DNA from: Escherichia phage EK8
Length of the DNA stretch: 64,000 bases
Sequence record: PQ805430.1
Reading direction: 5' to 3' (one strand)
Positions 27,705 to 29,275 of the stretch are shown here, one piece after another. Position 1 is the stretch's first letter; each line of letters starts with the position of its first letter. A program made the translations under genes and the position numbers. The notes beneath the pieces were generated by a model. The model was not told the DNA's origin and searched no databases. It was given only the letters and a program-made list of their open reading frames with translations.

Positions 27705-27737
27705 CCTTAATGGAAAAAGCCCCTCCAAAGAGGGGCT
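27705..27737 (-). terminator. rho-independent terminator candidate
   Basis: agcccctc-caaa-gaggggct then ttttccatt on minus strand. Confidence 0.45.
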
Positions 27738-28082: not shown

Positions 28083-28113
28083 GATTGTTACTCTGGTTTA
28101 GGGAGGGTATGAA

Positions 28114-28189
28114 TTGGATGGGGTATCTGGATTCGAACCAGAGAATGCCGATATCAAAGACCGGTGCCGTAACCACTTGGCTATACCCC
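28114..28189 (-). tRNA. tRNA-Gln (anticodon UUG), 76 nt with encoded CCA
   Basis: hand-folded cloverleaf: 7-bp acceptor, T-loop TTCGAAT, anticodon loop CTTTGAT; close to E. coli tRNA-Gln as recalled. Confidence 0.85.
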
Positions 28190-28194
28190 AGAAG

Positions 28195-28270
28195 GTGGCG
28201 ATGGGATGGAGATTCGAACTCCAATGTCGCGGATTAACAGTCCGGTGCTTTACCGAGTTAGCTATCCCAT
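28195..28270 (-). tRNA. tRNA-Asn (anticodon GUU), 76 nt with encoded CCA
   Basis: hand-folded cloverleaf: acceptor GATGGGA/TCCCATC, T-arm TGGAG-TTCGAAT-CTCCA, anticodon loop CTGTTAA. Confidence 0.8.
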
Positions 28271-28661
28271 CTTATTAATTAAGACACTCTGTTACCTGCC
28301 GATCCATGTGGCTGCATGGAATGATAACACACTGAGATTAGGGTATGAGCCTGTTCAATGTTGAGTGTCCTAATTAATAAGCCCCCTGTAAAGCCGGGGG
28401 GGCAACTCCGAGTTCGGTAATCTGGTTCTGGTTCCAGAGCACTCCAGGTATTAAGCCTTTGTGCAGGGACGGGTCACTGCCCGTATTATCAAATCGTATT
28501 CCCAAAGTAGAACATGGTTCTTAGTCGCTGGCGTCACCGGTGCTTCTAAGCATCAACACACTCGTAAGTATGTTCAGGTTTAAAAGCTCCCCCATCGCTG
28601 AGGGAGAAAATTGATAATGCAGGTGGTGTAAGTTAAGTATTACCGCACCCGCAGCCAGATA

Positions 28662-29210
28662 TCAAGCCTGGTTTGGAAGAAGTTGAGAAAAATCTGGTTC
28701 GGTGAAAGTCACCATGTTTTTCAGGAACTTCCCTTCCGGGTAGAATTTACCGTTCAGTTTGATATCACGCTTAACCTTAATGCACATAGTCGGGTAGTTA
28801 CCGTGCAGATACAGGTCGTCAGGCTGGAAGCCCAGATCATAGTAATAAGCCAGGGCTTTAATCTTGTCGCCTTCGCTGCTAATGAACTTAGACATGTTAG
28901 ATTCATGCACCAGGTCATAGCAGGAGTTACCATCGAAACCAGCCACATGAGCTACTCCGTCGTTAACGGTGGTCAGGTCACCCTGTGCATCCAGGATACC
29001 GGGCATATCGATACTGGTTTCATCCGTATCGCCATTCAGATCCCAGACTACCTTCATACCAGGGTGTGCAGCTTCGACCATTTCGATAGCTTCCTCTAAA
29101 CAAAGCATTGCCTGTTTACGGATAGCCTTAACGTTAGGGTTGTTCAGATCGCCTTTCGCGTTACCAAATGCTAAATTAAGTGCAGTAACTTTTTCGAAAG
29201 TAGTTTTCAT
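28662..29210 (-). CDS. hypothetical protein, possibly all-alpha NTP pyrophosphohydrolase (MazG-like)
   Basis: 182 aa; LCLEEAIEMVEA resembles the MazG/HisE EExxE helix; AGGAAA RBS. Confidence 0.35.
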   Translation of the reverse strand: MKTTFEKVTALNLAFGNAKGDLNNPNVKAIRKQAMLCLEEAIEMVEAAHPGMKVVWDLNGDTDETSIDMPGILDAQGDLTTVNDGVAHVAGFDGNSCYDLVHESNMSKFISSEGDKIKALAYYYDLGFQPDDLYLHGNYPTMCIKVKRDIKLNGKFYPEGKFLKNMVTFTEPDFSQLLPNQA

Positions 29211-29275
29211 GAAAGGTTTCCTTTCTCTTTAAATTGACAATAATGGGTGAAATTATTCACCAGAGCAGAGGACAT

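Follow-up and report, generated by a model that had tools for sequence, protein, structure and literature searches.

A conserved multi-hairpin non-coding region preceding the tRNA genes of Escherichia phage EK8 and related N4-like phages, a candidate leader and small-RNA locus

What occupies the 390-nucleotide (nt) gap that separates the gene for a MazG-like pyrophosphatase from the first of two transfer RNA (tRNA) genes in Escherichia phage EK8? The gap lies in a stretch of 64,000 nt from sequence record PQ805430.1, hereafter called the window, which belongs to an N4-like podophage (Schitoviridae) near the Pectobacterium Cbunavirus phages, the closest DNA matches being Cbunavirus CB1, phiA41 and Nepra with about 85-86% identity. 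The initial annotation, made from the letters of the sequence, had proposed either a third, degenerate tRNA or a processed small RNA at this place. As described below, the processed small RNA is the best reading of the gap and the degenerate tRNA fails. Judging from the comparison of related genomes, we give about an even chance to the view that the gap is a conserved, multi-hairpin non-coding RNA of the minus strand which serves as the leader of the tRNA-Asn/tRNA-Gln/orf81 operon and as a small-RNA locus.

BLAST and pattern scans yielded the region in about 35 distinct phages and contigs from metagenomes. The relatives are all N4-like genomes of about 76 kilobases (kb), namely phages of Pectobacterium, Kosakonia, Enterobacter and Klebsiella from Cbunavirus and Efbeekayvirus, and no described RNA was found in the literature for either of these two. 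The gaps share a core of about 105 nt (28484-28381 in the window, Table 1), which consists of hairpin H1, helix b, hairpin H3 and the segment ACUCGGAGU and ends in the terminator-like hairpin T2. The core always precedes a tRNA cluster led by tRNA-Asn and was found only there, MazG relatives without tRNAs having no core. Its exact pattern gave 0 matches in 185,579 bacterial and archaeal genomes (one per species), so that no origin of the element from a host was found.

In an alignment made with a covariance model from seven sequences, that is, one fitted to the structure, the 22 pairs of the core are 99.6% paired, as opposed to 26-55% when the partners are slid, and six double-sided changes are seen. 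Three of the five pairs of H1 change on both sides (ACGGG/CCCGU, CAGGG/CCCUG and ACAGG/CCUGU), helix b shows one double-sided change (C-G in 14 sequences and U-A in 11), at the closing pair of H3, in which the second CCAG copy does the pairing, 13 sequences have U-A and 12 have C-G, and T2 has the compensatory variant GCCCUC/GAGGGC in sequence L034. Many helices contain G·U pairs which are valid only on the strand of the tRNAs, and therefore the selection on secondary structure shown by these changes acts on an RNA of that strand. The gap had been called highly structured, with covariation in homologous regions suggested as a check; the structure goes beyond what is expected by chance, as the minus-strand fold has z = -4.75 and the plus-strand fold z = -2.57 (dinucleotide shuffles), and compensatory changes do keep the helices. 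The invariant sequences of the core, which include both single-stranded and stem positions, suggest sequence-specific recognition by a conserved partner.

Table 1 Features of the region in the window, listed in the direction of the minus strand
Feature	Coordinates	Strand	Evidence
MazG-like pyrophosphatase gene	29210..28662	minus	
Non-coding gap, 390 nt	28661..28272	minus	
Candidate -35 hexamer TTGATA, sigma-70-like, overlapping the MazG stop codon	28660..28665	minus	conservation and consensus scan
Candidate -10 hexamer TAATAC	28637..28642	minus	conservation and consensus scan
T1, 7-bp GC-rich hairpin CUCCCUC/GGGGGAG, then CUUUU	28582..28606	minus	sequence, kept stem
HP2, 8-bp hairpin with UACG (UNCG-type) tetraloop	28555..28574	minus	covariation
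H1, 5-bp hairpin with conserved loop CAGUGN, start of the core	28469..28484	minus	covariation
Helix b, GCAC (28461-28464)/GUGC (28439-28442) with AGG/CCU apical stem-loop within	28439..28464	minus	covariation
12-mer GGAGUGCUCUGG (28434-28445) and H3, UCUGG-AACCAGAA-CCAGA (28421-28438), nearly invariant core centre	28421..28445	minus	
ACUCGGAGU, invariant in 25 of 25 distinct sequences	28405..28413	minus	
T2, GC hairpin GCCCCC...GGGGGC (6-bp stem), then UUAUU; terminator-like, 3' end of the core	28381..28403	minus	
P1, 18-19-bp AU-rich helix (arms 28363-28380/28272-28289), with apical domain	28272..28380	minus	covariation
Apical three-way junction, 73 nt, optional	28290-28362	minus	
P2	28329-28361	minus	
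P2b, 7-nt loop (C/U)UCAUAC	28340-28352	minus	
P3	28291-28328	minus	
tRNA-Asn (GTT), first of the tRNA cluster, its 5' end abutting P1	28196..28271	minus	ARAGORN and Rfam
tRNA-Gln (TTG)	28115..28190	minus	ARAGORN and Rfam
81-amino acid open reading frame (orf81) after tRNA-Gln		minus	
Terminator after orf81	27737..27718	minus	

The conserved stretch might instead be a small protein-coding gene, such as the 111-amino acid (aa) open reading frame (ORF) of SABI or the ORFs of 30-60 aa in the Klebsiella phages, as one frame is open across the most conserved 60 nt in many phages and PHANOTATE and Prokka call ORFs there. However, the variable columns are distributed 10/6/7 over codon positions 1/2/3 with no excess at the third, an in-frame TAG interrupts the invariant block in phiA41, and starts, C-termini and indels (1 nt, 2 nt) vary between clades. 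The frame through the core is therefore not coding, and the core is almost certainly no gene for a protein. In the window, just three ORFs of 28-43 aa touch the gap and none of them is conserved, in agreement with the earlier statement that no convincing ORF is present. Public records leave the RNA element unannotated or overlay it with hypothetical ORFs (SABI, BM327, Tribble), and in those of FBKp27 and Halo_KS_7 the core contains a predicted promoter on the non-tRNA strand. Within the collected sequences, hypothetical proteins (30-111 aa) or such a 'promoter' are annotated over the core at L002 2220-2555, L008 728-820, L010 868-1047, L004 1665-1697 and L009 998-1029. Both kinds of annotation are probably artefacts of automatic annotation.

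Between T2 and tRNA-Asn, all 24 distinct spacers form a single hairpin of 16-26 base pairs (bp), which extends from the first base after T2 to the last base before the tRNA. This hairpin, P1, is a plain helix of 16-17 bp in CB4, Kc283, Halo_KS_7, Tribble and others, while contig L021 and phage Horatius have other inserts or a helix of 26 bp at this place. A three-way junction at its tip is carried by the window, CB1, phiA41, SABI, FBKp27 and others. For P1 and this apical domain together, the 33 pairs are 99.6% paired in 17 sequences, compared to 32-41% when slid, with six double-sided changes and seven pairs for which one or more sequences have G·U, equal to A·C when read on the opposite strand. 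The apical domain was not found elsewhere in IMG/VR and is known only in this context, so the idea of a mobile element was rejected. All the features which the initial annotation had named exist, with coordinates off by 1-3 nt. Its two GC hairpins (acggg...cccgt and gcccc...ggggg) are H1 and T2 of Table 1, and the internal hairpin is present as tccatg-tggctg-catgga at 28303-28320. The inverted repeat is real as well, although longer than the 15 bp proposed, with arms of 19 nt (28271-28289/28363-28381) which are 95% complementary and 73 nt apart; the 15-mers themselves lie at 28275-28289/28363-28377, not at 28272-28286/28362-28376. The domain of about 75 nt which the repeat was said to close does exist (73 nt) and is an optional addition to the hairpin tip, other phages having the hairpin without it.

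This domain might be the degenerate tRNA or tRNA-like element proposed in the initial annotation, an idea that would cover a mimic of the anticodon loop of tRNA-Met/Ile, and several features are in keeping with it. The domain adjoins the tRNAs and forms a three-way junction with a long closing stem, its P2b loop (C/U)UCAUAC, invariant except for the first position, agrees with the anticodon-loop pattern (pyrimidine-32, U33, CAU, A37), and a tRNA-like remnant of the Salmonella phage UTK0001, which has a GGTTCGAATCC T-arm, does have a similarly spaced inverted repeat as its acceptor stem. Despite that, the Rfam tRNA model (RF00005) at E ≤ 10 found the two known tRNAs and none in the gap, and ARAGORN found none in the gap at 100%, 90% and 80% of its threshold; the calls made below 80% with relaxed and mitochondrial settings were mutually inconsistent and were rejected. 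The domain has only two arms, neither a D-loop nor a T-loop (GTTCRANYC) and a closing stem of 18-19 bp instead of 7, the stem bearing the anticodon-like loop is just 3 bp long, and the whole domain is an optional hairpin insert. Furthermore, the extra tRNAs of the relatives (Asp, Tyr, Pro, Ser) are situated downstream of tRNA-Asn and never in the gap. A cloverleaf formed by the core, with H1 as D-arm, helix b as anticodon arm and H3 as T-arm, was checked by hand and rejected, since the would-be acceptor pairing is lost in SABI, Tribble and Kc283. A scan for known RNA families had also been proposed, and the Rfam 15 families, searched at gathering thresholds and at E ≤ 10, gave only chance-level matches in the gap. 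As neither tRNA finders nor Rfam detect anything in the gap, the degenerate tRNA is unsupported; the gap as a tRNA gene is largely refuted, and a degenerate or tRNA-like origin of the domain is very improbable. Of two other proposals, a CsrA sponge was set aside (the four GGA motifs are UGGA or CGGA and not AGGA, and L034 is without one of them), and ToxI-like antitoxin repeats were ruled out (there are no 36-nt tandem repeats).

A further possibility is an element acting at the level of DNA, i.e. a promoter or operator palindrome, an N4-type hairpin promoter, a replication origin or a packaging signal. AT-rich palindromes are present, N4-like phages are known to use DNA-hairpin promoters (PMC4496689, PMC9163698), and the promoter predicted in FBKp27 and Halo_KS_7 lies in the core, opposite to the tRNA strand. 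On the other hand, the G·U pairs of many helices become A·C mismatches on the other (template) strand, anything from 1 to 75 nt may separate the arms of P1, the loops far exceed the 3-4 nt of the N4 and LUZ7 promoter hairpins, and the 64-kb window contains the AT-rich motif only once, which also led to rejection of the AT-rich P1 arm as a repeated promoter motif. The DNA-level reading is thus disfavoured, and we consider it hardly likely.

The position of P1, with double-stranded RNA (dsRNA) placed between the core and tRNA-Asn, raises the question of processing. A site for ribonuclease (RNase) III would consist of about two turns of dsRNA between functional RNAs; the helix present here has 16-26 bp and is kept by compensatory changes, cleavage being a prediction. 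UTK0001 (Ithacavirus, an unrelated N4-like subfamily) has no core and possesses an AU hairpin of 26 bp starting with CUUAUUAAU (z = -6.9), the 3' arm of which ends exactly at the 5' end of tRNA-Ser(UGA). A long dsRNA helix next to a tRNA thus seems to be recurrent in N4-like tRNA clusters, which favours a processing role for P1. In the same phage (L069 1582-1667 and 2056-2156, minus strand), the tRNA-Ser(UGA) detected by ARAGORN is missing from the annotation of the record, a 19-nt inverted repeat in the spacer between tRNA-Met and tRNA-Ile closes a tRNA-like remnant whose T-arm is GCAGGTTCGAATCCTGC, and a second T-arm-like remnant, GTGAGTTCGAGTCTCAC, is located upstream of the AU hairpin.

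It would be possible for the gap to do no more than this, that is, to be a processing and insulation spacer working in cis, which ends MazG transcripts, aids tRNA folding and guides RNase III, E or P, the excised leader being degraded without a function. The strict linkage to tRNA clusters, P1 abutting the tRNA in every variant and the similar hairpin abutting tRNA-Ser in the core-less Ithacavirus are all in accord with such a spacer. It does not explain why about 50 nt of the core are invariant outside the helices, a constraint which a structural spacer does not need, or why a motif of the core is shared with a LUZ7 locus (see below) that has no adjoining tRNA. Moreover, a deletion in CB1, CB3, phiA41, A38 and Nepra has merged the two tRNA genes into one chimera, which takes its 5' part (acceptor and D-arm) from tRNA-Asn and its 3' part (anticodon arm, T-arm and 3' strand of the acceptor) from tRNA-Gln. 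No acceptor stem can form in the chimera (L005 1075-1215 in CB1 and L003 805-945 in phiA41, corresponding to 28083-28290 in the window), ARAGORN does not detect a tRNA there, and the record of phiA41 labels it 'tRNA-OTHER', a pseudogene. All five phages keep the complete leader although both tRNAs are lost; its retention in CB1, phiA41 and Nepra tells against a spacer, and it hints at a role beyond tRNA expression. A purely cis-acting spacer is a real possibility although clearly not the favoured one.

The upstream part of the gap contains a candidate promoter. The pattern TTGnnn-17 bp-[T/C]AnnA[A/C/T] is present at the aligned position in 34 of 34 distinct relatives, the spacer varying in sequence and constant in length, and it is kept with the TTG inside the MazG coding sequence, on the stop codon or past it. 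The -10 hexamer is weak and ends in C, as is expected of N4-type late promoters (PMC4496689). We infer a conserved sigma-70-like candidate promoter at the MazG stop codon, with a start site that is deduced and not mapped. Within the candidate spacer (window 28619-28652), a further covarying hairpin is found at the MazG stop codon. The window has GCGGGUG...CACCUGC, CB1 has GGAUGUG...CACAACC, and the Klebsiella phages have small palindromes (e.g. AGCUA-AG-UAGCU); the conserved motif GGYAWWACUWA adjoins this hairpin. Downstream, the stem of T1 is kept in relatives with differing sequence (CUCCCUC-UUCG-GAGGGAG, or AGCCCUGG-UUCG-CUGGGGCU followed by U6), and T1 is a putative terminator of MazG transcripts, at which those started at the candidate promoter would first stop. 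The terminator scan, with its minimum of 5 T among 8 bases, picked up neither T1 nor T2 in the window. In the Klebsiella phages, T1 has U6 and T2 has UUAUUUAU, the latter being the better U-tract that is seen at T2 in phages without the apical domain. HP2 occurs in 17 distinct variants among 24 sequences, 100% of them paired and each with one or two G·U pairs valid on the minus strand only, and the stretch of about 70 nt that follows up to the core is poorly conserved and is missing in Halo_KS_7.

A comparable locus has been described in the Pseudomonas phage LUZ7, in which the 398-nt intergenic region between orf69 and orf70 gives rise to abundant late RNAs shorter than 250 nt according to ONT-cappable-seq (PMC9163698). 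These putative small RNAs (sRNAs), sRNA1-3, include two with one start site and different terminators and a third that is apparently processed (PMC9163698). The LUZ7 region, which includes GGAGTGCTCTGG...CCAGACCAGAGCACTCC, is made up of a sigma-70-like promoter, a terminator, an AU hairpin starting in the terminator U-tract and the hairpin GGAGUGCUCUGG...CCAGA-CCAGAGCACUCC; no Rfam family matches it. The 12-mer GGAGUGCUCUGG is identical between the LUZ7/LIT1 region and the core centre and forms the 5' strand of a hairpin in both, and the 3' side has a tandem CCAGA-CCAGA in the same arrangement, the second copy doing the pairing. In IMG/VR the combined pattern of 12-mer and CCAGA is limited to the two N4-like groups, apart from 2 chance matches in coding sequence. 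The two loci also resemble each other in that each is a non-coding intergenic region of about 400 nt on the early/middle-gene strand of an N4-like phage, with a sigma-70-like promoter and two hairpin terminators (in the gap a candidate promoter and putative terminators), several adjacent stable hairpins and an AU-rich hairpin that starts with CUUAU directly after a GC hairpin of terminator type. The candidate promoter, T1 and T2 of the gap would be compatible with the LUZ7 transcript pattern of one start and alternative terminators.

Unlike the gap, the LUZ7 locus has no adjacent tRNAs, and its flanking proteins are unrelated. The LUZ7 stem is a perfect one of 12 bp with an interior of 44 nt (39 nt before the unpaired first CCAGA), whereas that of the core has 5 bp, or an interrupted 12 bp, and a loop of 8 nt. 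The RNAs of LUZ7 were observed experimentally, while the element described here is known from its sequence. The LUZ7 segment is 83-85% conserved in Litunavirus (LIT1, PEV2, DEV). LUZ7 (L024 4902-5019) and LIT1 (L074) share a structured element of about 118 nt with z = -8.7 and three abutting hairpins, 83-85% identical between Luzseptimavirus and Litunavirus and absent from Rfam, and the loop of the LIT1 AU hairpin also holds GAACCAG. A true relationship of the core to the LUZ7 element is, in our judgement, somewhat better than an even bet. Two covariance models, R1 (whole core) and R2 (hairpin domain, filters off), gave no match in Ithacavirus, phage Cronus and the MazG relatives without tRNAs.

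Taken as a leader and small-RNA locus, the gap could work in the following way. Host RNA polymerase would start at the weak candidate promoter on the MazG stop codon, and MazG read-through would contribute more transcripts. Part of the transcripts would end at T1 or T2 and yield small RNAs, which would match the short and long LUZ7 sRNAs of one start site, and others would run on into P1 and the tRNAs. The dsRNA of P1 would be cut by RNase III, and/or the 3' end would be set by RNase P at position +1 of tRNA-Asn, either of which would split a hairpin-capped leader RNA of about 105-250 nt from the tRNAs. The freed core (GGAGUGCUCUGG/CCAGA-CCAGA/ACUCGGAGU) would act in trans, most likely bound by a conserved protein or RNA. 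What the data show is selection on RNA structure in the tRNA strand, the make-up of the modules, their conservation and strict linkage to the tRNA cluster, and the lack of a coding signal; we infer the promoter, the nucleases, termination at T1 and T2 and any function in trans. The processed small RNA of the initial annotation is plausible and fits the covariation and G·U pairs on the tRNA strand, the end of P1 at the 5' end of tRNA-Asn and the related motif in the LUZ7 sRNA locus.

The arrangement of a conserved structured domain directly followed by a terminator-like hairpin upstream of genes, with invariant junction and loop bases in covarying stems as is typical of aptamers, could also be that of a cis-regulatory attenuator or riboswitch-like leader, in which the core would sense a protein, a tRNA or a small molecule and set read-through at T2 (perhaps T1) into the tRNAs and orf81. 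There is an alternative, LUZ7-like fold of the core, in which GAGU of the 12-mer pairs with ACUC in the ACUCGGAGU segment and H3 is extended; it competes with helix b, and the two mutually exclusive folds share the G/A at column 45. The extra pairs of the alternative fold never vary. Nevertheless, no anti-terminator pairing with T2 was found, the U-tract of T2 is weak, no known riboswitch or T-box model in Rfam matches, and the leader is kept where the tRNAs are dead. An attenuator appears to us rather improbable.

Several observations weigh against the leader and small-RNA locus as we propose it. The two core folds fit the data equally well, and the double changes in the core mostly split just two clades, which means few independent events. 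The U-tract of T2 in the window is poor (UUAUU) and the hairpin did not pass the terminator scan. T1, a strong terminator in the Klebsiella group, is only about 25-50 nt past the proposed start, an obstacle that polymerase would have to pass to reach the tRNAs; a conserved sigma-70 promoter between T1 and H1 was not found by hand inspection. At 16-19 bp in most phages, P1 is short for a classical RNase III site. Compared to the Klebsiella phage FBKp27, a comparison that in itself counts in favour of the locus, the window has identities of 59.6% in MazG DNA (about 55% in protein), 56% from T1 to H1, 78.8% in the core, 90.8% in P1 with the apical domain and 79.5% in tRNA-Asn. As P1 with the apical domain has only 79% identity to CB1, this module has probably been exchanged between lineages, and its high identity to the Klebsiella phages may partly reflect recent exchange and not constraint. 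With regard to LUZ7, the significance of the 12-mer is modest (p of about 0.004-0.02 by count, with 14 of 300 shuffles reaching the local-alignment score), the order of modules differs in that the LUZ7 12-mer hairpin comes after the AU hairpin, R1 and R2 miss the LUZ7/LIT1 hairpin at E ≤ 10, and BLASTP of the flanking ORFs against LUZ7 gave nothing below E = 0.1 and hence no protein synteny.

The leader and small-RNA locus may also be compared with better known systems. In its working it would come nearest to the sRNA locus of LUZ7, to RNAC and RNAD of phage T4 and to the sRNAs cut from spacers of bacterial tRNA operons. The RNase III hairpins of T7 early mRNA and the stems flanking rRNA resemble P1 in placing dsRNA exactly between two functional RNAs, with a variable apex and compensatory changes; they differ in that the length of P1 is mostly 16-19 bp, with 26 bp reached in Horatius and Ithacavirus, and that its cleavage is a prediction. 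RNAC and RNAD of phage T4 are co-processed from tRNA precursors, and RNase III cuts the T4 species 1 RNA in vitro. Like the element described here, RNAC and RNAD are small non-coding RNAs beside phage tRNA genes on the same strand, a likeness of genomic context only, whereas T4 is an unrelated myovirus and its RNAs lie within or after the tRNAs and not in a 5' leader. They are expressed late and their function is unknown (PMC9697503). By analogy, the spacer sRNAs of E. coli tRNA operons (e.g. 3'ETS-leuZ; for the class see PMC9514646) are stable regulatory RNAs freed from a tRNA precursor by tRNA-processing nucleases, as might be the case here. In contrast to the leader of about 390 nt with its own candidate promoter and putative terminators, they come from short 3' or internal spacers, and they sponge Hfq-dependent sRNAs, while no target or Hfq-type 3' end is evident in the phage element.

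As for the wider setting, MazG, the gap and the tRNAs share the minus strand with most of the non-structural genes of the window, and the divergent portal gene has its start near 29234 on the plus strand, which also carries the block from portal to virion polymerase. The divergent intergenic region between MazG and portal is just about 25-65 bp long (window 29211-29275), a very compact control region with two small terminator-like palindromes (29211-29225 plus, 29261-29246 minus). In Horatius (L007 1070-1144), Possum and Arno152, tRNA-Asn has the anticodon ATT in place of GTT according to both ARAGORN and the records, which is an unusual first anticodon base. The record PQ898399.1 (Enterobacter phage SonariX, 248,734 bp) contains at 181864-183109 a MazG/leader/tRNA segment as in the 76-kb SABI with identical scores, suggesting that it is a concatenated or chimeric assembly.

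A bolder view, which we hold with much less confidence than the leader and small-RNA locus, is that the core represents an unrecognised family of non-coding RNAs extending from LUZ7/LIT1 to the phages of Pectobacterium, Klebsiella and Enterobacter. The GGAGUGCUCUGG/CCAGA-CCAGA hairpin would then be an abundant late trans-acting RNA which binds a conserved partner, possibly a phage or host protein or a host RNA, and it would work independently of the tRNAs, as it survives in phages in which these are dead. In such a family, the apical domain with its anticodon-like CAU loop might serve as a decoy that diverts host enzymes directed at tRNAs.

Small RNAs encoded by phages are few in number and little understood, and those adjacent to tRNAs, such as T4 RNAC and RNAD, are still without a known function (PMC9697503). 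The present locus, on which current annotations place ORFs and opposite-strand promoters that are probably spurious, offers an RNA of clear limits, backed by covariation and with invariant bases open to mutation, and natural variants with or without the apical domain and with or without working tRNAs, as well as a possible link to LUZ7, the only N4-like phage where such RNAs were seen. If that link is true, it would define an RNA family open to testing in the Schitoviridae, and several of these phages are candidates for use in therapy or biocontrol.

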